A stretch of DNA of 52,709 bases. It comes from a virus. Lineage: Duplodnaviria; Caudoviricetes. Location: positions 1 to 52,709 of IMG/VR virus record IMGVR_UViG_3300047300_000727, one strand, 5' to 3'. This document shows positions 4,884 through 51,741 of this stretch, piece by piece (the stretch's first letter is position 1; each line of letters begins with the position of its first letter). Made by a program: the position numbers and the translations under genes. Below the pieces are notes generated by a model, which was not told the origin of the DNA, made no database searches, and saw only the letters and a program-made list of their open reading frames with translations.

Positions 4884-7129
4884 TGGCTACAAAGTGGGGG
4901 CTGAAGGTTGAGGTCGACTGTCCGGAACCGCGTCTGAATAAGGGCAGGCTAGTGATGGGCGCCTATGGTCTGACCTGGGACAAAGCGTTCAGTGACTCAA
5001 CCTGTTTCTGGGACTCGCCTACGCAGTCGCTGATGCCGTTACCACTGCCATTGTCCGGAGCGTGGGAAACGAACTTCAGCGGACTCTATGCGCGTCTGTC
5101 GCTCACTGATCTGGTAGTGACAGGTGGTTCGTGGCGTCAATATCAGGTCAAGGGTGCCGGCGATTATTGGATAGGTCTTGACGACAATCTGACGTACGCG
5201 AGCAACATCTACACGGCTACGTCATACCCTGCGAACAGCGCGTGGTACTTCGGCGTGTGCAACTCTGACACGACATCGAACAGCAACCGTGTGATTATGA
5301 CCATCACATTCGGGTACGTCGCAGCGACTCCGGACACAGTCGGAATCAAGCTCAGATTCTTCGCGAATGGTGGATGTCAGATATTCAAGAATGGCATTCT
5401 CAAAGGGCAGTATGACCAGTCGGATTCGAACCAGACTGCAGGAAGGAATACGCCAGGAACACAGAAGATGACCGGGCAGTATCACGGCGTGTACGTGCTA
5501 CCGCACAAACGGCGTGAACTGCTGGTGATGACTTCGTGGGGGCTGAACTTCAGCCACACATTCGAAGACCTCGACCAGAACAGCACGACGAACACTATTC
5601 TTCCAGCCGGGTACATCCGGACTTTCATCGAGCAGAAACGACCATTCTTCCAAATGGCACCGATTCGCTTCAGCGCTTCGTGCTCGGCATACAGCAAGCC
5701 GATACAGCTGCGCTACGCTCCACCTACAGGCGCAACCTTCAACTGGACGGTGTGGTATGACCGCATCAGTCAAGCGACAGGCGGTGCTGGTGGCACCATC
5801 AGCATCGTGAAGCCAGACGGGACCGCATACACTCCGGATGGTGTCATCGATACCATTCGGGTGAAGGTGACGCTGACATCGAGCGACCAGATTGAAGCGT
5901 TCGGAGTGTCGCTCGCCGAAGCGTGGTATCAGCCAACACCGACAACCACGGCGAACGCTCCAGTGGACATCACGCCATATCTCCAGAATCTTTCCCTGGC
6001 TGTCGATGAGTCAGGGCGAACGACGCTCCACATGTCCGGACGTCGCAAGCGTCTGACGGATGCTGGCGTCCAGCAGGTGCAAATCACCGGAGACCGTCCA
6101 GTGCGTGTGGCGCTCTCTGATGGAGCCGTCACACCAACGTGGTCTGACATCTTCCGTGGCACGCTTCAGCCACCACAGATTCAATATGCGCGAGCTGACA
6201 ACACGACAGATGCGGATATGTCTGCGCTGGTCTTCACTGGGCAGGACAGGTCACACGACTTCACGCTTCAGATGTTCGACAGCGCGGTGATTTACGACGG
6301 CTTCACAATGGAGTCGGCAGTCAAAGACCTTGTGACGTGTTGTGGTTATGCCACAACCGACGTGACGTGGAATGACACATCAGGGTTTACACTGCCACGC
6401 TCATCGGATCTCGCGAAGGGACACGCGAATGTATGTCCACAACGCGGTGACAACGTCAACGGTATGCTGACGAAAATCAAAACCGACTATGCTGCGAACT
6501 GGTTCACTGCTTGGCAACCGACAGCGACCGGGTACAAATACGTCTGGTCGAATCCATCAAGCCTAAGCACGACACCGGTCATCACGCTATACCACAGCAC
6601 GGCTGATGCGAAGGCTCAGGGTGTGGTGGCAGGGCTGGTGTCGAAGCGTGTGATTCGGAAGTTCAGCGCACACTATGAATCACCCGAAGCGAATCAGATT
6701 GTCGTCGTCGGACAGGACCCGCGTGATGCGAGTCTTATATATGCCTTCGGCGCGGATTCAGCATCGATGGACCCGACGACTGCTCCGGCATCGAGACCGT
6801 ACAACTGGCGTGGTCGACCTGTGATGTACATCAACAGTGACCCTGCAATCACAACGCCTGCAGCAGCTGCGCAAGCGCAGACGGTACTTGCGAGTCGCTT
6901 GATGTCAGGGCGCATCCTGATCGAGTTCGAGTCGGATGTGCTGGTCGATGACGCCACGAACAGACCACTGTGGATTGGTGATGTCATCAAGCTCATGAAG
7001 CCGGGAGGAACTGTGGTGCGCGGTATATATCGCATTGTGTCGATTCCTTCGATGAACTTCGAGCGTGAGACATCGACCACCATTCTGCGTCGTGCGCAGT
7101 ATCGCTGTGTCTACATCGGGGCTGGTTAA
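4883..7129 (+). CDS. Tail tip/hub-type structural protein
   Basis: 748 aa directly after the tape measure; distant similarity to 37250..39619. Confidence 0.6.
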   Translation: MATKWGLKVEVDCPEPRLNKGRLVMGAYGLTWDKAFSDSTCFWDSPTQSLMPLPLPLSGAWETNFSGLYARLSLTDLVVTGGSWRQYQVKGAGDYWIGLDDNLTYASNIYTATSYPANSAWYFGVCNSDTTSNSNRVIMTITFGYVAATPDTVGIKLRFFANGGCQIFKNGILKGQYDQSDSNQTAGRNTPGTQKMTGQYHGVYVLPHKRRELLVMTSWGLNFSHTFEDLDQNSTTNTILPAGYIRTFIEQKRPFFQMAPIRFSASCSAYSKPIQLRYAPPTGATFNWTVWYDRISQATGGAGGTISIVKPDGTAYTPDGVIDTIRVKVTLTSSDQIEAFGVSLAEAWYQPTPTTTANAPVDITPYLQNLSLAVDESGRTTLHMSGRRKRLTDAGVQQVQITGDRPVRVALSDGAVTPTWSDIFRGTLQPPQIQYARADNTTDADMSALVFTGQDRSHDFTLQMFDSAVIYDGFTMESAVKDLVTCCGYATTDVTWNDTSGFTLPRSSDLAKGHANVCPQRGDNVNGMLTKIKTDYAANWFTAWQPTATGYKYVWSNPSSLSTTPVITLYHSTADAKAQGVVAGLVSKRVIRKFSAHYESPEANQIVVVGQDPRDASLIYAFGADSASMDPTTAPASRPYNWRGRPVMYINSDPAITTPAAAAQAQTVLASRLMSGRILIEFESDVLVDDATNRPLWIGDVIKLMKPGGTVVRGIYRIVSIPSMNFERETSTTILRRAQYRCVYIGAG

Positions 7130-10139: not shown

Positions 10140-10200
10140 AAAGAAAACCTCCGGTGATGGACAGCACCGGAGGTCTATCGGCTGGGAAGGAGTCAGCCTG
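10138..10200 (-). ncRNA. Candidate anti-Shine-Dalgarno small RNA (phage A)
   Basis: Minus strand: hairpin GGCUG-ACUCCUUCC-CAGCC, then a 10-bp stem (10147-74), then a U-tract. Confidence 0.45.
10147..10174 (-). terminator. Intrinsic terminator oriented for the minus strand
   Basis: ACCTCCGGTG/CACCGGAGGT stem, preceded on + by AAAAAGAAA (U-tract on minus). Confidence 0.7.
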
Positions 10201-39869: not shown

Positions 39870-42817
39870 TGCCTTACCTTGACGGCACACGAACTGCCAC
39901 GCTTACGATGGATCACACGCAAGGCGTGACCGTAAGGCTTTGGAACCCATACACTGTTGTACCGCCCGACGTTGATTGGCAGAGCATGGCAACCGACTTT
40001 ACATTCTCTGGTCATCTTGGCTTTTCGGCATCGCTTGCAATCCAAACGAGCGTCACTGGTACGGCTCCAGGTTCTCCGTGGTCTTGGCAGGTCAAGGCAC
40101 ACATCACCGTAAACAACGGACACGGTAGTACTAATACTGGTGATATCGTTCTTGCTTCAGGAACCGAGACAGGCACGACGCTTTACAAGGATGTCAGCAC
40201 CACCTGTGCTGGTAGTTTCTCGGCATCGGTTGGCGTGGATAAGCTTTGGGATATTGCAGAGGATTCGTTTTCGTCAACCAGCGCACCAACACGTTTCCCC
40301 AGCCTAACGGGCTACACATGGTACGAAAAGACGACATCGGGCAGCACAGCGGCTTGTAGCCTATCCGCTGGCGGTGGTTCGGTTAGCGTCTCAGCTGCGG
40401 CAACATCCAGAGTGACAGCCAACTACATCGCAACGCTTGGAGCATCAGGATATAGCGTTGGCCCTGCGACTCATGGGTTTGCTGTGTCAAATGTCAAGGT
40501 CAACGGCACGGCTGTACATGACATAACGCACAGCCATATATGGCACGGACAATCTGCTACTGAATGGTCGTACAGCCTTACAGGTGATGTTGATGCTTTT
40601 GGCATATACCAAGGAGCATCCGGAACAATCAGCACATCATCCTGTTTAGATCGTAACGTGGTTATTGCTGGCAGAATCCGAGCATGGGAGGGAGCGTATC
40701 CCGATGCTCTCAATGTCATCGTTACAGGCTACGATGGTGGAACACGCACGGTTGGTTCATCTGGAGGCAGTTATAGTGCTTCCGACACATTTGTCAACTA
40801 CTTGACAAGCACGGTACTTACCGACCCAACGTATGGAAGCGACACGCTCACGACATCAGCCAATGATGTACCTACATGGATATCTGCCGAACTGTCAGGA
40901 AGCGGACTAACAACCAACGGAGACTCAAGCACGGACAACCGTGTTATGTTTCGTGGATGGCGCTTTACAGGATGGTCGGTAGCAGAAACCAATAACCGTT
41001 CCATTTCTGGTACAGGTAACGACCGCACGTACTCACCGTTTGAAGGCATGTCCGGGTATCGCTACTTAGATGTACAAGTAAAAGCACAAAGCGGTACAAG
41101 CGTTGCTGGGACGATTGAATTAACCGATTATCACGGCAATACAAAGTCGTGGAACGTTACGGCAGCCACAACAAGTTATGCAACAATCACGCTAGACTTA
41201 TGCTCTCCTGATTCGCACTCACTAGCGTCAATGCCGGATAAAGATGCAAAGGATAATCCGTATCCACGAAAGAACACTTCTAGCAGTTCCTATGCTGGCT
41301 CAGAGAGCGTCGATAGTGCCTACTGGGGTGTTACTTCGTGCCAAAGATTACGGGTGTCTTCTGGCGCAATAGACATTGGCACAACTACGCTTAAGTATAC
41401 AAACACAGATAGCACTTATGTCCCAGATACGCCTACAGCGGCATTTGAACGCATTACACCTGCTATTGTTGCCGAAGCTGGAACGACTACTTATTACTAT
41501 GGACGTAGATTTTGGCAGCAGGATCGCGATGGCCGGAACGAGGAAGAAAGCGACGTACATTGGCAGATGACGGTAGGCGGCTCAACAGGCGTTACTACTT
41601 ATTCTGTTAGCATGCTTACCATTGCAGGACTCGCATCACAGGTCAATGCAAGTGATAACAGCATCGTACGGCATCCGGGATGGGTTATGACTCGGTCTGT
41701 TATTCAACCTGGCGGAGGTACATGTTCAGTGAGTCAGCCACCATTACGCGACTGTTATCTAAACGGCGATACAGGACTTGCTACATGGTTGTATGGTGGC
41801 GGGACGTTACTCACTCCAAATGCAACATCCGGCACTGACTTCGCATACGGCCATCAGATAACTTCCGGCACAATCACGGCACAGACAGTCTTTGACCGCA
41901 TTAATGGAAATTTCCCACCAGACTTGTACGACCCATTTGATATCAATGGAGGCACAGATAGTGCTTTGTATCTCGGTGGTGTCTCGTTGCTACGTGGTAT
42001 CGCTCACGGTGGGTTACTAGATACAGCAGGTGACATTGTCACGACAGGCACTGTTGACCTTATTCGTACGAGCGATAGCAGTAACCGTGGATCGGATTCC
42101 ACAATAGATGCGCAAGGCAGATACTACACGAGTACGCCTTGGGGACTTGGTGAAGTAAATCACCATGTTGACTACATAACAAAGAGTCAGAACATTAACC
42201 CTGTACACACTAGTCATAGACATCGCGTGTGGTTCCGAGATGTATTACAGGAAATCTATTCAGCTATCGAAGCATACAAGAATAAAGGATTCTTGATGCT
42301 CGGTAAAGCTACAAAGATAAACGTACGCTGGCAGGATAACCCATTGACTGACCGTATCCCCGGTACGGTGATAACTAGCGACAATATTGTAAAGCTCAGA
42401 GACTCTGAGAATGTCGGAGACTACATCTTTATCCTGATAAAGGGAAGTACAAGTTACACTTTAAGTTACACAACAGATAATGGCGCCACGAAGGGAGACT
42501 ACCTGACAGTGACAGCAGGAACAGCAGGATTTGAAGCAGACACAAATCGTGGATTGCTTATTATTATCTACGATGATGGTACTACGGCATCACCAGGAAA
42601 CATAAAGTACAGAGTAAGTAAAGATCAAGGCGTGACTTGGTCTACAGCAGCTAACTGCACAATAAACAGTGTTACGCCACAGGTAGGTAAGGTACTTGAT
42701 ACCAGCTACGACCCACACCTTGGAGGAATGCTTTACGCTATCTTTGACATTGGTGGAACAAAGAAGGTTTGTAGGTCTACTGACTTAGGAGCAACGTGGG
42801 AAGTTGTCCTAACATAA
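39869..42817 (+). CDS. Large tail/baseplate protein with C-terminal BNR/Asp-box repeats (phage B)
   Basis: Homolog of 7129..10056; TTDNGAT, SKDQGVTW and STDLGATW. Confidence 0.72.
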   Translation: MPYLDGTRTATLTMDHTQGVTVRLWNPYTVVPPDVDWQSMATDFTFSGHLGFSASLAIQTSVTGTAPGSPWSWQVKAHITVNNGHGSTNTGDIVLASGTETGTTLYKDVSTTCAGSFSASVGVDKLWDIAEDSFSSTSAPTRFPSLTGYTWYEKTTSGSTAACSLSAGGGSVSVSAAATSRVTANYIATLGASGYSVGPATHGFAVSNVKVNGTAVHDITHSHIWHGQSATEWSYSLTGDVDAFGIYQGASGTISTSSCLDRNVVIAGRIRAWEGAYPDALNVIVTGYDGGTRTVGSSGGSYSASDTFVNYLTSTVLTDPTYGSDTLTTSANDVPTWISAELSGSGLTTNGDSSTDNRVMFRGWRFTGWSVAETNNRSISGTGNDRTYSPFEGMSGYRYLDVQVKAQSGTSVAGTIELTDYHGNTKSWNVTAATTSYATITLDLCSPDSHSLASMPDKDAKDNPYPRKNTSSSSYAGSESVDSAYWGVTSCQRLRVSSGAIDIGTTTLKYTNTDSTYVPDTPTAAFERITPAIVAEAGTTTYYYGRRFWQQDRDGRNEEESDVHWQMTVGGSTGVTTYSVSMLTIAGLASQVNASDNSIVRHPGWVMTRSVIQPGGGTCSVSQPPLRDCYLNGDTGLATWLYGGGTLLTPNATSGTDFAYGHQITSGTITAQTVFDRINGNFPPDLYDPFDINGGTDSALYLGGVSLLRGIAHGGLLDTAGDIVTTGTVDLIRTSDSSNRGSDSTIDAQGRYYTSTPWGLGEVNHHVDYITKSQNINPVHTSHRHRVWFRDVLQEIYSAIEAYKNKGFLMLGKATKINVRWQDNPLTDRIPGTVITSDNIVKLRDSENVGDYIFILIKGSTSYTLSYTTDNGATKGDYLTVTAGTAGFEADTNRGLLIIIYDDGTTASPGNIKYRVSKDQGVTWSTAANCTINSVTPQVGKVLDTSYDPHLGGMLYAIFDIGGTKKVCRSTDLGATWEVVLT

Positions 42818-42880
42818 AGAAGCCCGCCTGGGGGAACAAGCGGGCCTCGCTACTTAATGGGGAAATTATGAAACGGTAGC
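42811..42880 (-). ncRNA. Candidate anti-RBS small RNA (phage B)
   Basis: Minus-strand promoter just upstream. Hairpin GCUAC-[CGUUUCAUAAUUUCCCCAUUAA]-GUAGC, then a terminator with loop GUUCCCCC and UUUAUGUU. Confidence 0.6.
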
Positions 42881-42886
42881 AATCAG

Positions 42887-42915
42887 AGTATACACAGAAA
42901 GCCATGAATACCCAA
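42887..42915 (-). promoter_or_regulatory. Sigma70-like promoter for the candidate sRNA
   Basis: Minus strand TTGGGT(42915-10)-17-TATACT(42892-87). Confidence 0.55.
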
Positions 42916-43143
42916 GAGACTGCAACCCAAAAAGTTTTAACCCGGCAACAAAAACGGGTATGGGCTGCCGTCACTCAGCTTGGTTTTGCTGGCGCCGCCA
43001 AAGTACTTCATAAGAGTGAGCGTACTCTTGAATGGCATATGTACCGAATATCCAAGGCATTGGGAACCAATAATAGGCACGAACAAGCCAAGATTTTGGG
43101 AATACGCATCAGAATAGAACGCATAAATGTTGACGGAGCGTGA
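42904..43143 (+). CDS. LuxR/sigma4-like HTH protein
   Basis: LTRQQKRV...AAKVLHKSERTLEWHMYRISKALG. Confidence 0.7.
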   Translation: MNTQETATQKVLTRQQKRVWAAVTQLGFAGAAKVLHKSERTLEWHMYRISKALGTNNRHEQAKILGIRIRIERINVDGA

Positions 43144-43159
43144 ACTCGTGTGACATAAT
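43130..43159 (+). promoter_or_regulatory. Sigma70-like promoter
   Basis: TTGACG-18-CATAAT with TGn extension. Confidence 0.6.
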
Positions 43160-43179
43160 GCCTTCATATGGAGGTAGTT

Positions 43180-43839
43180 ATGACGCGAACAAGCGATCAG
43201 TTAGACCAAATCGCACCCGCTCTTGTCGGCATACACAATGAGTTACGGGCGATTGTAAAGGATTCAAAGAATCCTGCATTCAAATCGAAGTACGCATCCT
43301 TGGATGCAATCTTGGACACTGTACGTCCTATCCTTGTCAAGCACGGATGTTTCATCACGCAGACTGTTACTGAGGGTTCTACTCATAACGTCACAATGCG
43401 TCGCAAGTCAAACAATGAGCAGACAGACCAAACGGTAGAGACGTTTCAAGAGACTTCCGTATTTACAATTACAGCGTTGTCACGTTGTATACATTTATCC
43501 GGTCAGTGGATAGAATCCTACAGTATTGTGCCTGTCGCTAAGTTCGACGCACACGGTCTTGGAGCTGCACAAACATATGCACGGCGATTCTCGCTTGCAT
43601 CATTGCTCGCTCTCGCAACCGATGAAGATGACGACGGCAACGCAGCGACACATGCTGTTATCCCGGCACAAAAACAACTTGGCATTGGCGATCAGTTCTG
43701 GCTGGCAGTAAATCAACGCTATGGCACAGACTTAACGCCTGACCGTAAGAAGGAAATCTATATGGAATTTTCCGGTACGGATAAGCCATCACCGGAAGGC
43801 TATACGTTGGCACTAAGAAAGTTACAGGAAAAGAAATGA
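43180..43839 (+). CDS. erf: ERF-family recombinase (phage B)
   Basis: KDSKNPAFKSKYASLD and GAAQTYARRFSL...DEDDDGN; GGAGG RBS. Confidence 0.9.
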   Translation: MTRTSDQLDQIAPALVGIHNELRAIVKDSKNPAFKSKYASLDAILDTVRPILVKHGCFITQTVTEGSTHNVTMRRKSNNEQTDQTVETFQETSVFTITALSRCIHLSGQWIESYSIVPVAKFDAHGLGAAQTYARRFSLASLLALATDEDDDGNAATHAVIPAQKQLGIGDQFWLAVNQRYGTDLTPDRKKEIYMEFSGTDKPSPEGYTLALRKLQEKK

Positions 43840-44132
43840 GTTACATACTCGTAAGCATCTTTTGTTCACTGCTTGGTTTTATTGTTGGTGGGTTTGCATT
43901 GCTTCCCAAGCGTGTACAGGACGACACCATTGTTCAGTACACCAATCAGCGTGGGGAGCGCGTGTTCGCAAAGACGGTTGGGCATCAGTACGAAGGCACA
44001 GATTATATTGTCGTGCAACGATGCGACTTGATGGGTGAGCCAGTGGGCATAGTGTTCGTGCTTGATGCAGACAGAGTTAGCTGGAAGGATGACAAGGGGG
44101 ATAAATGGACGAGCAAAGTCTTCAACAAGTAG
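43836..44132 (+). CDS. Hypothetical protein with an N-terminal TM helix
   Basis: Hydrophobic N-terminus; coupled ORF. Confidence 0.55.
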   Translation: MSYILVSIFCSLLGFIVGGFALLPKRVQDDTIVQYTNQRGERVFAKTVGHQYEGTDYIVVQRCDLMGEPVGIVFVLDADRVSWKDDKGDKWTSKVFNK

Positions 44133-44653
44133 AGCGAAGCGGGGATTGGCTTGTGGATGCAGAAACCGGAGAAATCATCGGCCTTGCTGAGGATAGTAAT
44201 AAGTACATCAAGCGTGTAGACACTATTCACGACCTTGAGGTGTATATGTCTAACCTTATGGAAATGGAATCTGATTTGGCTGCACGTAAATTGGCACTTG
44301 CTGCCATCGTTGAGAATGCCAACAAGATCATCAATAATTTGTCTGCGCGTGTTGAGTGGTACAAACTCAAACACAGCGACGAAGTACGCATGGTAGCGGA
44401 AGGGAATCTTCCACGTGGTAGTAAGACCTATCGTTGTGTTTACGGGACAGTCAGCTTCCGCAAGAAGAATCCGCGTATTGTAGTCAAGGACGATGAGAAA
44501 GCCATCGCCTGGGCAGAAGCCAATGCCCCTGAAGCAGTAGTGACGACAAAGAAGGTTCTTGTCTCTAAGGTAAGTATTGAAAACCTACCAGAAGACACAG
44601 ATGCGTTTGAAGTCATACCTGCGGAAGAAAGCATGTCAATCAAAACGCTATGA
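44105..44653 (+). CDS. Mu Gam-like / siphovirus Gp157-like DNA-end protection protein
   Basis: VDAETGEI, coiled coil, SKTY...YGTVSFRKK...D.EKAIAWA. Confidence 0.65.
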   Translation: MDEQSLQQVERSGDWLVDAETGEIIGLAEDSNKYIKRVDTIHDLEVYMSNLMEMESDLAARKLALAAIVENANKIINNLSARVEWYKLKHSDEVRMVAEGNLPRGSKTYRCVYGTVSFRKKNPRIVVKDDEKAIAWAEANAPEAVVTTKKVLVSKVSIENLPEDTDAFEVIPAEESMSIKTL

Positions 44654-45279: not shown

Positions 45280-45306
45280 GAACCCGGTTTTGTAGCCGGG
45301 TTCTTT
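45280..45306 (+). terminator. Terminator hairpin
   Basis: GAACCCGG-ttttgtag-CCGGGTTC-TTT. Confidence 0.65.
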
Positions 45307-45324
45307 GCATCACAAGGGGAAATT

Positions 45325-46146
45325 ATGTGGGTCAAATTAGACTGTAAGTTACCGATGAACAAGACTGTTCGTCGTCTTTCCAGCGATGCGTTTCGCTGGT
45401 ACATCTATGCACTCTGCTACTGCGGTGAGCATCTAACAGACGGGCGCCTGGACTCTATGGACGTAGAGACAATCACGGCCTGTATGCGCGTCACGGAGGC
45501 TGCATTTACCGAATGTCTGCAAGCTGGACTCCTGCGCGAAACAGACGCTTGGCAGTATGAATTTGTAGGTTTTACGGACACGCAAACATCACGCGAATAC
45601 GTGGAAAAACGACGCGCTGATGATCGTGCCAGAAAGACCAGGGTAGTTGCTAAACGCAATCATTCCGCAGCGGAATCCACACCGGAATCCACACCGGAGT
45701 CCTCAGCAGATTCCACGCGTATAGAATTAAGAATTAAGAATAAAGAAATAGATAAAGATAAAGATATATGTATAAGAGAAGTAATTACTAATTCATCGCT
45801 TGCTGACGCAAACGAGCCATTGACTGCCAAAGCTTGCGTAGCTATGTACGTGGATGCATGGACACTAAAGTACGGGAATACGCCTACGGCTTCGCTAGCG
45901 CCGCTAGGAGCACACTTTAAGCGCGTTATTGGGAAAACACCCGACGAGACTATAAAGTCGTCTATTTCGGCGTTTTTTACGCTATCGGATACATGGGTTT
46001 TACAGAACGCTCATAAGCCAACGATCCTGATATCTCAATGGGATTCCCTGGTCACTGGTAGTGCACTAATCAAGACTGCAAAACGCACCGCCAGTGTTGA
46101 TGTTGCGGATAGATTTCGTGATTCGATTTTGGAGCAGATTCAATGA
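45325..46146 (+). CDS. Replication initiator (lambda O / replisome-organiser-like) with an internal origin
   Basis: MWVKLD start after GGGGAAATT; central ESTP repeats and KNKEIDKDKD linker. Confidence 0.65.
   Translation: MWVKLDCKLPMNKTVRRLSSDAFRWYIYALCYCGEHLTDGRLDSMDVETITACMRVTEAAFTECLQAGLLRETDAWQYEFVGFTDTQTSREYVEKRRADDRARKTRVVAKRNHSAAESTPESTPESSADSTRIELRIKNKEIDKDKDICIREVITNSSLADANEPLTAKACVAMYVDAWTLKYGNTPTASLAPLGAHFKRVIGKTPDETIKSSISAFFTLSDTWVLQNAHKPTILISQWDSLVTGSALIKTAKRTASVDVADRFRDSILEQIQ
45671..45792. repeat. Iteron-like 12-bp repeats plus an A/T-rich tract (putative origin of phage B)
   Basis: CGGAATCCACAC x2 plus degenerate copies, then ATAGAATTAAGAATTAAGAATAAAGAAATAGATAAAG. Confidence 0.6.
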
Positions 46147-46550
46147 ACCAAGTAGCAACGCGGAGTGGTGTGGACGCCGAGGCAATAAGGCACGTTGTAG
46201 ACCGCATAGTGCCGATTCTGGCGCGTTATCAGGGCGTCACGATAGATGAGACGGACTGCAAGTTATACGCTCAGGCTTGCCGTTCTTTGGCACAGCCATA
46301 CAACCCTAAAGGCTTGAACGAGCTGGAGATGAAGATTCGCAGGGAGTGTAAGTTTCGACCTACACCAAAAGAAGTTGAAGATTGGGCAGACGAAATTGCG
46401 GGACGCCACATAGCTGCAAACGAAGCAGAGGCACGTCGTGTGTATCGTGCGCCTATTGCAATCGAAGCACATCCGGAAGAGACCGAAAGGGCACGTGAGC
46501 GATTCCGTCAGAAGTTCCGAGATTTGATTGAAGGGAAGAGGATGCCATGA
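46143..46550 (+). CDS. Putative helicase loader/inhibitor-like protein
   Basis: Follows the initiator; CKFRPTPKEV motif. Confidence 0.45.
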   Translation: MNQVATRSGVDAEAIRHVVDRIVPILARYQGVTIDETDCKLYAQACRSLAQPYNPKGLNELEMKIRRECKFRPTPKEVEDWADEIAGRHIAANEAEARRVYRAPIAIEAHPEETERARERFRQKFRDLIEGKRMP

Positions 46551-46894
46551 AGTGGAGAGGGCGCAGGCTTAAGTACGATCCGATAGCTGAGCATAGCGGC
46601 TACAAGCATGCTCCGCGAAGGCGTGTAAAGCTTTGCATTGAGAATGACTTGATGACATACCGTGATGCCGCCATATTCCTGCGGATGAATCCTACAACGA
46701 TACGTGTGTACAAGCATCGAGGAATCTTTACAGGGGAGAAGATGGGACGGATATTTCTACTGCATGGTGCGAGCATCCGTGCTTACATGGAAGCCAACGA
46801 TCCAGAGAATCTTAGATGGTGGCTAACACAGAAGACAGACATTCTTACCGGGCCAATATTAGATGAGATGAGACAACATGACAGTAGCGTGTAA
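46547..46894 (+). CDS. Excisionase-like HTH DNA-binding protein
   Basis: LMTYRDAAIFLRMNPTTIRVY...G...KMGR. Confidence 0.7.
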   Translation: MKWRGRRLKYDPIAEHSGYKHAPRRRVKLCIENDLMTYRDAAIFLRMNPTTIRVYKHRGIFTGEKMGRIFLLHGASIRAYMEANDPENLRWWLTQKTDILTGPILDEMRQHDSSV

Positions 46895-48267: not shown

Positions 48268-48756
48268 ATGGATAAATGTCCAAAGTGCGGAGTGCCCGCA
48301 ATGCAGGTAGTTGATGGTGAATGTATCGAGTGCCGATTGTTCCAAGTTCACCGCGATCCAGAACCTGTGACGTACGCAGACAAGCTCAAGGTGATGCTGT
48401 CTCAGGCAGGTACGGAATCGTTCTTTAGCCTGATGCCTCGTTTGTGGTCAGGAAGAATCGCATTTCGTGACTTGCCTGTGCCGACAGGTAAGGCAGTCAA
48501 GTATATGTTCTTTGATCGCGGTAACCTGGAGACGTTGTCAATGACTGTGCCAGACAACGCGATGATCAATACGAACATAAGCTTGCTTGACATGTCAGAC
48601 GACACATGGCATTTGCTACCGGAAGATATGGAGTTCAGCTGCCCGGTAGATGATCGCGAGATGCGGGCCATCAGGCTAATGAACAGACTGAAAAACCCAG
48701 AGTTTATGCGCTTCTTCGCGCACTGTGAACATGCCGAGACATGGATGCAGCAGTGA
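48268..48756 (+). CDS. Zn-ribbon plus DUF2829-like hypothetical protein
   Basis: MDKCPKCG...CIEC; SFFSLMPRLWSGRIAFR...LLDMSDDTWHLL; GGGGA RBS. Confidence 0.55.
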   Translation: MDKCPKCGVPAMQVVDGECIECRLFQVHRDPEPVTYADKLKVMLSQAGTESFFSLMPRLWSGRIAFRDLPVPTGKAVKYMFFDRGNLETLSMTVPDNAMINTNISLLDMSDDTWHLLPEDMEFSCPVDDREMRAIRLMNRLKNPEFMRFFAHCEHAETWMQQ

Positions 48757-48759
48757 CCG

Positions 48760-49048
48760 GGACGGACGGACGGACGGAGGCGCATACGCGTACATAGCGA
48801 GCGTACATAGCGCATAGTGAGCACGGTAGGTAAACAACCCGCCGTGCTTTTTCTTTGTCTCGTTGTGGAGCCTAGAATCGATTTCAGACTCCACAAACTA
48901 CAGAAGCTCGAACCAGGCACAGTGACCGCACGTAAGGCGCCCGCATCGCATGTATTCCCGCACGATAACGCACGTAACGCGCGTATATACGCTAACCCGA
49001 GACGGGCTGCTAAAACGGACGCAAGACGGACGGACGGACGGACGGACG
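48760..49048 (+). repeat. (GGAC)n tetranucleotide arrays in non-coding DNA
   Basis: Arrays at 48760-78 and 49025-48 (GACG x6); a third at 48139-50. Confidence 0.85.
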
Positions 49049-49403
49049 GGCAGGTGCATGTGTGTGTCTGCGTCGCAAATGTGCTCAAATCCAAGCCTGG
49101 CAGATCCACAGATTGCTGCACCTGGCATTGGATTCTAAATCGAACGGACATAATGACATGATCGCCAGGGATCGGACGTAGCTGCAAACCGGACGCAAAC
49201 GAACGCAAATTAAGCGCGTCATAGGTCAAGCTTGCGGATTTACAGGTCAAGGTATGCATGCGTTTTAGGATGTGCATAGGCGCAAATGGGCGCCACGCTT
49301 GGGTAGTAAATCACGTATATGCACCCGCGCACATCCGCGACCGGAAATTATCTGGAATCTCTCGGGCGCGCGTTTCCTTCTATAGCAAACCGATAGGATC
49401 AAA

Positions 49404-50193: not shown

Positions 50194-50210
50194 AGGTATC
50201 GGGGGAAATT

Positions 50211-50969
50211 ATGAAAACACTAGTAACAGTTAGCAATTCGGGCGCGCTTGAAATGCGCCCGCGATCAAACCGGGCGGATATCTGCACGGCCGTAGAAAAA
50301 TCAGATAATGATAAAACCGGGCCAGTATCGGCTACATGGGTTGCACAAAATAGCTGCCCGTCAAGCTGCCCGCATATGGGCGCAGGTTGTTATGCGGAAA
50401 CTGGTATGGCCGGGTTTACTACCGCGCGCCTAAATAAGGCGGCAGGTGATCACCCGGAATTAACGCCCGCGGAAATTGCACAAATTGAGGCTGCAGGTAT
50501 TGACACATTGACGGGTAAACGCGACCTGCGGCTGCATGTAGTGGGAGATGCCCGCACGGATAAAGCTGCGCAGATTCTAGCGGCTGCGGCAGATAGGTAT
50601 ATCGCGCGCGGAAATGCTAAAGGCAAAAATGTACGCGTCTGGACGTACACACACGCCCGCGATACAAAACGTGCATCATGGGGGAGAATATCGGTTTTAC
50701 GATCGTGTGAAACCCTGCAACATGTCAAGGCGGCACATGCTGCGGGTTATGCTGCCGCGATCGTGATCCCGGAACATGTACACGATACCGCGTATCCAAT
50801 GGGCGAATTTACCGCTATACCCTGTCCAGAGCAAACCGGGCGGGCGGCAAATTGCCAAGCTTGTGGACTATGCATGCGCGATCAAATGCTGCATGCAAAT
50901 AAGCGGGTGATCGTATTTGCGGCACATGGGCAGGGTAAACGGAAAATGGTGCACCTGAAAACAGTTTAG
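50211..50969 (+). CDS. Cys-rich GP88/DUF7227-like protein (radical-SAM-like Cys pattern)
   Basis: SDNDKTG, CPSSCP...CYA, RLHVVGD, WTYTH, CPEQ...CQACGLC and FAAHG. Confidence 0.65.
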   Translation: MKTLVTVSNSGALEMRPRSNRADICTAVEKSDNDKTGPVSATWVAQNSCPSSCPHMGAGCYAETGMAGFTTARLNKAAGDHPELTPAEIAQIEAAGIDTLTGKRDLRLHVVGDARTDKAAQILAAAADRYIARGNAKGKNVRVWTYTHARDTKRASWGRISVLRSCETLQHVKAAHAAGYAAAIVIPEHVHDTAYPMGEFTAIPCPEQTGRAANCQACGLCMRDQMLHANKRVIVFAAHGQGKRKMVHLKTV

Positions 50970-51471: not shown

Positions 51472-51489
51472 GAAATCATGGGGGAAATT

Positions 51490-51741
51490 ATGGATCAGTT
51501 AAACACTATACACGTTACGATACACCTTAAAGGTGATCGCCTTATGCAACCTTCAAAATGCGCGTACGTACCATCATGGGATGATATTGATCGCCTTAAA
51601 TCAGGTTTAATTGACGCGATCACAACCGGGCAGATAACGCAGGAATTTTTGACGGGCGCGATCATATCGGCATGCAAGCTTGCAGAATTTGACACCCGGA
51701 AATTCAAATTTGACGGATTAGAATGGGTTAAGGTGTATTGA
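51490..51741 (+). CDS. Hypothetical early protein
   Basis: GGGGAAATT-ATG start (MDQLNT). Confidence 0.65.
   Translation: MDQLNTIHVTIHLKGDRLMQPSKCAYVPSWDDIDRLKSGLIDAITTGQITQEFLTGAIISACKLAEFDTRKFKFDGLEWVKVY

Follow-up and report, generated by a model that had tools for sequence, protein, structure and literature searches.

A conserved element behind the tail genes of uncultured phages mirrors their early-gene ribosome-binding signature and may specify a small RNA

A hairpin element in the gap between tail and early genes

We analysed a virus record of 52,709 bp from IMG/VR (IMGVR_UViG_3300047300_000727; Duplodnaviria, Caudoviricetes), the whole of which is called the window here, with attention to a compact hairpin element in the gap between the last tail gene and the early genes of a phage. 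The record probably consists of two related phages joined via a homologous gene, phage A (1-30.5 kb) and phage B (30.6-52.7 kb), because relatives 32-44 kb in length (terminal repeats in two) match the window at 30.6-52.7 kb alone and because the window start (first 390-513 bases) is homologous to the window's own 32,06x-32,57x, the region of a 694-amino-acid (aa) gene. The GC content drops from ~0.55 to ~0.47 near 30 kb. The 62-kb sequence G013 likewise holds two elements and two genome equivalents. The element considered here belongs to phage B, all of whose genes are on the plus strand, in the order tail genes (the last, of 982 aa, ending at 42817), an 86-nucleotide (nt) gap, a 79-aa protein with weak GerE-type helix-turn-helix (HTH) similarity, Erf, a Gam-like protein, the replication initiator (true start at 45325), RusA, a Cro/CI-type HTH protein and a DUF7227/GP88-like protein.

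On the plus strand the gap contains GGGGAAATTATGAAA (42859-42873), a copy of the ribosome-binding site (RBS) signature of the early genes, which leads only to ATG-AAA-CGG-TAG (MKR*), an open reading frame (ORF) that is not conserved. Read on the minus strand, opposite to all the genes, the same gap would form a self-contained transcription unit. A putative sigma-70-type promoter, TTGGGT-17-TATACT, consists of a weak -35 box TTGGGT (42915-42910), lying within codons 3-4 of the 79-aa gene and 17 nt from the -10 box TATACT (42892-42887), which is followed by a 6-nt discriminator (42886-42881); it would yield an RNA of ~69 nt starting with the G at 42880. This RNA is predicted to form a 5' hairpin (42849-42880) with a 5-bp stem, GCUAC/GUAGC (42880-76 / 42853-49), and a 22-nt loop (42875-42854) exposing UUUCAUAAUUUCCCC. 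Directly behind it comes a Rho-independent terminator hairpin (42848-42819) of 12 bp, including two G-U pairs that form on the minus strand only, whose loop, UUCCCC, is a second C-rich motif resembling an anti-Shine-Dalgarno (SD) sequence. The hairpin is followed by the tail UUUAUGUU, and the U-rich tract itself, UUUAUGUUAG on the minus strand (42809-42818), overlaps the TAA stop codon (42815-42817) of the 982-aa tail gene.

The minus-strand fold has an energy of -26.9 kcal/mol (z -3.73) and was matched in stability by none of 200 shuffles; the plus-strand fold reaches -23.0 (z -1.52), and 13 of 200 shuffles were as stable. A terminator scan called a site on the minus strand only, where the GC hairpin is directly followed by a U tract, as in a Rho-independent terminator. 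Rfam 15 gave no match at the gathering thresholds over the whole window, the best sub-threshold E-value for the element being 0.44; searches in E-value mode returned nothing significant for this element or for that of the distant group described below. An earlier sequence-only reading of the window had named the motif and its ATG-AAA-CGG-TAG, a repeat of the motif at 50202-16, 12-mers at 45316-27 and 51481-92, the minus-strand boxes TTGGGT-17-TATACT with a start near 42880, and a minus-strand fold comprising a hairpin with an exposed loop motif and a terminator with G-U pairs and a U-rich tail. Every one of these features was recovered at its position.

The early-gene signature and its copies in related phages

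The repeats of the motif lie at gene starts. The exact second copy of GGGGAAATTATGAAA (50202-50216) covers the RBS and start of the DUF7227/GP88-like gene, and the first 12 nt of the motif, GGGGAAATTATG, precede two more early genes, covering the RBS and start of the replication initiator (45316-45327) and of an 83-aa ORF (51481-51492). A motif search with up to three mismatches returned five matches, against 1.09 +/- 0.99 expected by chance, and 1 of 100 shuffles reached five. When the loop of the predicted RNA was scored for duplex formation with 30 start regions, the same three genes, starting at 50211, 45325 and 51490, ranked first (-22.4, -21.5 and -21.4 kcal/mol, respectively). Seven early genes scored between -14.9 and -22.4 and all 10 late genes -12.4 or weaker, with a background mean of -7.2 (sd 3.2). 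The predicted targets lie 2.4-8.6 kb from the element. Use of the signature is confined to a subset of the early genes, namely the replication initiator, the DUF7227 gene, small ORFs and the Cro/CI-type regulator.

Two further observations concern these sites. The best duplex energy of the loop, -25.3 (gapped, with G-U pairs), was obtained at 46733-46755, GGGGAGAAGATGGGACGG, inside the gene at 46547-46894; the homologous site in the relative G003, GGGGAAAAGATG, has a 52-codon ORF in a different frame. Upstream of the replication gene, a GC hairpin GAACCCGG..CCGGGTTC is followed after 12 nt by GGGGAAATTATG (45281-45327). This gene-start cassette, a GC hairpin abutting the signature RBS or standing 12-13 nt upstream of it, recurs at many sites in G009-G020, and in the distant group the hairpin abuts GGAGATAAG.

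The element is conserved among the close relatives of phage B, which we refer to with it as the window group. It lies between the same two genes in 14/14 relatives found (8 from IMG/VR and 6 metagenome contigs), whose 79-aa proteins are 85-99% identical. Wider searches led back to the same set: scanning viral contigs for the DNA pattern gave the 8 IMG/VR contigs again and no further carriers, and a protein scan of metagenome contigs returned 6 loci with the same five sequence types. In an alignment of 9 sequences, GGGGAAA, GTAGCA and TATACACA are invariant and the rest diverges; the CTAC/GTAG core of the 5' stem is unchanged in all nine, and the terminator stem shows compensated changes between relatives (GCCCGC/GCGGGC vs CCCCG/CGGGG). 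Complementarity between loop and RBSs is conserved over 9-10 nt in 8/9 genomes and over 7-8 nt in G002, a seed of the kind expected of a trans-acting small RNA (sRNA). In 9/9 genomes every GGGGAAA before an ORF of at least 30 aa lies within ~10 kb downstream of the element, that is, in the early block, and the replication initiator site reads GGGGAAA(T/A)TATG throughout.

The plus-strand copy in the element does not behave as the start of a gene. The ATG after GGGGAAATT is absent in 6/9 genomes (G003-G008), which argues that the copy is not kept as a working RBS; elsewhere three codons follow it (two genomes) or 12 (one), and no frame of this mini-ORF survives the indels of 1, 5 and 6 nt. A minus-strand ORF of 65 aa at 42777-42974 was likewise rejected as a gene, since indels break its frame in relatives. 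The idea of a sponge for CsrA, based on GGA in the loops, was also dropped, the terminator loop reading UUAGGGGUGA, without GGA, in 5/9 window-group genomes.

A search with the tail protein recovered 51 loci, comprising 8 of the window group, 6 ending before the stop codon and 37 of a distant group (L018-L051, L056, L057 and L060; 36 distinct sequences). In all 37 an element unrelated in sequence to that of the window has the same architecture and place, ~55-110 nt past the tail-gene stop (e.g. L025:4498-4582), here between the tail gene and a gene for a CHAP lysin. On the plus strand it comprises an A/G-rich stretch, a long GC hairpin (3 pairs with compensatory change), a small hairpin and a box whose minus-strand reading is TATATT or TATACT. 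The stem of the small hairpin covaries (GTCG/CGAC vs GTCAG/CTGAC); its loop, GGGAGATAA, is invariant and the next base is G or A. A minus-strand RNA would present the loop CUUAUCUCCC. The RBS signature of these genomes is GGAGATAA(G/A)-N2-5-ATG, with 2-7 sites per genome on both strands; the 9-mer occurs in 1-6 copies in each of 10 genomes, and its reversed control in none of them. The signatures of the two groups are mutually exclusive: the 9 window-group genomes lack GGAGATAAG and have 29 copies of GGGGAAATT, all of them on the gene strand, whereas 8 distant-group genomes contain GGAGATAAG 29 times and GGGGAAATT not once. Loop and RBS also covary within the distant group at base 9, where genomes with A in the loop have A at 13 RBSs and G at 4, and genomes with G in the loop have A at 11, G at 25, C at 2 and T at 1 (Fisher p = 0.003 for the A and G counts, C/T left out; 12 genomes, not corrected for phylogeny). 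In the distant relative L025, the minus-strand early operon starts behind a near-consensus promoter, TTGACA-18-TATATT (5666-5695, minus strand).

Two more versions were found. L118/G023 combines the loop CAGGAGGTTG with CAGGAGGTT upstream of three early genes (278, 438 and 188 aa); the minus strand again reads TATACT, 6 nt, a hairpin and then a terminator with UUUUUCUUUUU. Phage A of the window and L117 have the loop GGGAAGGAG and GGAAGGA before 2-3 genes, a weak match of 7 nt. Four hairpins follow the tail gene of phage A (10057-10202), with a canonical minus-oriented terminator at 10145-10176 and then UUUCUUUUU; the small hairpin of phage A, GGCUG-GGAAGGAGU-CAGCC, stands 9 nt before the in-frame ATG (10202) of a CHAP-like ORF. 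Overall, the loop copies the group's own early-gene RBS signature in four versions, GGGGAAATT, GGGAGATAAG, CAGGAGGTT and GGAAGGA. Because the loop tracks the signature in this way, a chance resemblance or a dead relic is an unlikely source of the match. The sequence-only reading had anticipated much of this, for the loop proved to be conserved, the signature is confined to early genes, the three named starts lead the pairing ranks with late genes weak, and the covariation it had looked to in related phages appears both in the four versions and at one variable base within a group.

The surroundings of the element in phage B were also surveyed. The 79-aa protein, encoded at 42904-43143 on the plus strand, resembles GerE/LuxR-type HTH proteins weakly (E 0.0047, short of the Pfam cut-off), and its gene lacks both an SD and a clear promoter of its own. 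The best plus-strand promoter-like site of the region, TTGACG-18-CATAAT with TG (43130-43159), lies at the end of this ORF, just before erf (43168). An ORF of 291 aa at 48402-49277, a putative gene without a Pfam hit and opposite weak plus-strand ORFs, is the sole long minus-strand ORF of phage B. No tRNA or tmRNA was found. Neither blastn of 41800-44200 nor tblastn of the tail protein found a match among 50,697 cultured-phage records. Among 185,579 species genomes the tail protein has a single match, at 84% identity over 125 aa, to L116, a 1.6-kb contig of an Opitutales metagenome-assembled genome; the match is a faint hint of a host, may be a binning artefact and is too little for naming one.

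Evidence on the active strand

We tentatively favour the view that the element encodes a minus-strand RNA of ~69 nt that represses early genes by pairing, through its loops, with their RBS signature. The anatomy of the element, its conservation, the agreement of loop and signature and the confinement of the signature to early genes are observed; transcription of the minus strand, pairing and repression are inferred. The C/U-rich loops of such an RNA, UUUCAUAAUUUCCCC and UUCCCC, are complementary to the signature GGGGAAAUU(AUG), and pairing would cover both the SD and the start codon, so that initiation would be blocked; late genes, lacking the signature, would be spared. An early-to-late switch would be a more natural role than the maintenance of a quiescent state. 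The latter had also been proposed in the sequence-only reading and finds no support, given that no integrase or lysogeny module was found among the 30 scanned ORFs of the window or the 33/52 scanned ORFs of the complete relative G003.

Several features of the window group point to the minus strand. The -10 box reads TATACT in 13 and TATAAT in 2 of 15 sequences, keeping the A at -11 and the T at -7, and the spacer from the box to the G that opens the hairpin has a fixed length of 6 nt in 15/15 despite five sequence variants. The TTG of the -35 box is kept in all 15, with a spacing of 17-18 nt. Read on the plus strand, the box is TATACA, without the -7 T, a TG or a conserved -35. The SD that precedes the box in L118 (GGAGTATACAC) has decayed to GAG, TAG or TAT in the window group with the box intact, and this invariance despite the lost SD argues that the box is not kept as an RBS spacer. 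In 15/15 window-group sequences, and likewise in phage A, L117 and L118, the stem runs straight into a U/T-rich tract, and this is so on the minus strand only. Finally, the minus-strand fold is better by 2.2-6.0 kcal/mol in 7/7 distinct window-group sequences, the G-U pairs being C-A mismatches on the plus strand.

Other observations weigh against an anti-RBS RNA. Identity on the plus strand is the same as complementarity on the minus strand, so covariation cannot tell the strands apart. The trans-acting sRNA suggested in the sequence-only reading gains from the anatomy, conservation, tracking and minus-strand signals, but an active plus-strand copy would lead one to expect the identity just as much. 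The proposed promoter matches the consensus at only 8/12 positions, which is under the threshold of the promoter scan, and was not called. The complementarity over 15 and 12 nt on which that reading had relied is present in the window, but perfect pairing of 12-15 nt is special to the window, L002 and L110, the latter two being its closest relatives; what is conserved is the shorter seed given above. In G002, with loop GGGGGAAAGAC and RBSs GGGGAAAA[T/A], 7-8 nt of complementarity are left; a compensatory change was considered there and rejected, as loop and RBSs are both altered and have no mutual match beyond GGGG(G)AAA. A constitutive repressor of a phage's own early genes would further need a timing logic that the sequence does not reveal.

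The remaining adverse points come from the other versions and from RNA data. Outside the window group, in the three other versions, the -10-like box falls on the spacer between SD and ATG of the CHAP lysin gene, which comes next on the plus strand, and this spacer role could account for the conservation of the box there; the spacer resembles that of the T7 gene 10 RBS. These other groups have minus-strand early genes downstream, and a minus-oriented terminator in them could serve just to shield the late operon. The distant-group tail is C/U-rich after a CCCC spacer, with no canonical U tract. For the distant group the plus-strand fold is slightly better in 29/34 distinct sequences; we have not counted folding energy as a strand criterion there, because the gain is mainly one extra G-U pair of the small hairpin at a variable position. 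Nine RNA runs were found, as contigs only, and four were examined, X7 and X9 being true metatranscriptomes and X1 and X2 probably DNA. One 231-nt contig from X7 spans 42688-42918, across the hairpin, and may derive from DNA; from 42919 to ~43130 there is almost no contig cover. As contigs are unstranded and without ends, the RNA data speak neither for nor against the small RNA.

Much of this evidence would also suit an active plus-strand RNA, which we regard as unlikely, though better placed than the other alternatives. It would belong to the late mRNA or to the next gene's leader, and its hairpins with RBS look-alikes (GGGGAAAUU, GGGGGAA) would bind a factor that recognises the signature. This factor could be the 30S subunit, with the element as a standby or loading site ahead of the 79-aa gene, which lacks an SD; it could also be a repressor of translation or, as with T4 RegB, a nuclease that cuts RBSs. 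The effect would be mRNA processing or stabilisation, or titration of the factor. Such a mimic predicts exactly the loop/RBS identity seen in the four versions, and the fold preference of the distant group agrees with it. A plus RNA surely exists in the distant group, where the element sits within the late operon before the lysin gene, and the plus strand there is rich in the SD-like motifs AAGGAAGGGG, AAGGGAGA and GGGAGAUAAG. In phage A and L117 the loop SD stands at a working distance, 9-10 nt, before the in-frame ATG of the CHAP gene and may simply be the RBS of that gene, which again counts against the minus-strand RNA. The signatures are shaped like the T4 RegB/S1 target, an 11-nt single-stranded GGA plus A-rich stretch, as described in the available text of PMC1702504, and the strandless X7 contig, with its possible DNA origin, spans the hairpin. 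What an active plus strand leaves unexplained is the U tract always on the minus side, the invariant -10 box of the window group after SD decay and the minus-strand G-U pairs. No binding factor was identified, and PHROG/Pfam scans of 30 + 12 + 33 proteins, most of which the scans left unnamed, revealed no RegA- or RegB-like protein.

We consider it improbable that the element is only a one-way terminator shielding the late operon from downstream antisense transcription, with the RBS hairpin left over from a gene-start cassette and without function in trans. The recurrence of the cassette (hairpin, 12 nt, GGGGAAATTATG) at 45281-45327, the rule of hairpin plus RBS in the distant group, and a mini-ORF that varies between relatives like a decaying gene start are all consistent with this explanation. 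So is the orientation of the early genes in the distant group and phage A, which run on the minus strand towards the element with no terminator predicted at the convergent junction; in L025 none is predicted between the minus-strand early operon and the CHAP gene. The window group, however, has no minus-strand genes or minus promoter-like site within 1.6 kb downstream, yet has the most canonical terminator. Nor would a relic hold a 10-nt loop motif invariant across 36 distinct sequences whose stems change with compensation (GTCG/CGAC vs GTCAG/CTGAC), or track the RBS signature at a variable base.

It is very improbable that a minus-strand sRNA acts only in cis, on late read-through or the leader of the next gene (with cleavage), in the manner of P22 sar or lambda OOP and with a functionless likeness to early RBSs, for although it shares the minus-strand signals, is given perfect complementarity to any plus RNA crossing 42812-42880 and in phage A/L117 would cover a possible CHAP-gene start, it leaves the tracking in four versions unexplained and would start 24 nt upstream of the ATG of the 79-aa gene, which is not covered.

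Relation to known systems

To our knowledge, phage sRNAs for the most part target either a single gene that they overlap or genes of the host. P22 sar, lambda OOP and BTP1 STnc6030 are described in the available text of PMC12197685 as small or antisense RNAs with their own promoter and terminator, directed against neighbouring phage genes, STnc6030 lying opposite the tailspike gene. These RNAs act on the gene they overlap, whereas the proposed RNA overlaps only the intergenic gap and the tail stop codon and falls 24 nt short of the next ATG. A limited literature search on phage sRNAs acting on early-gene SDs found no description of a multi-target anti-RBS phage RNA, which does not prove absence.

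The closest system in logic is c4 of P1/P7. It derives by processing from the transcript that also carries its single target operon, upstream of which it lies, and in P1/P7 heteroimmunity loop and target differ together between related phages. The available text of PMC12197685 describes c4 (immI) as a phage RNA of ~70-80 nt whose loops are complementary around the RBS of its own mRNA and block translation. The loops of the element are, as in c4, complementary to the RBS region of a phage mRNA. Unlike c4, the proposed RNA would be driven from a promoter of its own on the opposite strand and would lie at least 2.4 kb from several unlinked targets that share the signature, without co-transcription; c4 has no sequence or Rfam relation to the element.

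Closest in form are the C-rich-loop sRNAs of bacteria (RsaE/RoxS, 6C). Such RNAs, among them 6C and mmgR, are short and terminator-ended, and C-rich motifs in two loops pair with the G-rich SDs of many mRNAs. RsaE/RoxS and the S. aureus Rsa RNAs with a UCCC motif are C-rich anti-SD sRNAs of this kind, according to the available text of PMC2790875 and PMC6158497. They are host-encoded and metabolic, whereas the element is phage-encoded and, as proposed, aimed at the phage's own early genes. The Rfam matches to 6C, RybB and mmgR are far under threshold (17 vs 47, 15.1 vs 40 and 11.7 vs 41 bits, respectively).

In T4, the repressor RegA shuts off early genes through the RBS. Post-transcriptional shut-off by RegB has as its handle an extended RBS signature of the early T4 mRNAs, GGA(G) with an A-rich stretch, as set out in the available text of PMC1702504. 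RegA and RegB are proteins, and the effector proposed here would be an RNA. We hold, about as tentatively as the reading of the window itself or slightly more so, that an uncultured aquatic phage family (>50 contigs, four sequence versions) may devote a tiny post-tail gene on the otherwise empty strand to an anti-RBS RNA whose loops co-evolve with a phage-private early RBS signature, an RNA counterpart of the T4 RegA/RegB shut-off. Even if the plus strand is the active one, a post-tail hairpin that always copies its genome's early-gene RBS signature is a concrete, testable regularity in uncultured phages. If the RNA exists, group-specific pairs of loop and signature could decide which related phages interfere in a co-infected cell, and a code that differs between related phages would offer a sequence-level handle on such cross-interference. 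A trans-acting RNA that reads the private RBS code of a whole temporal class of genes would then be a new way of timing the lytic programme, a task done by proteins in T4.

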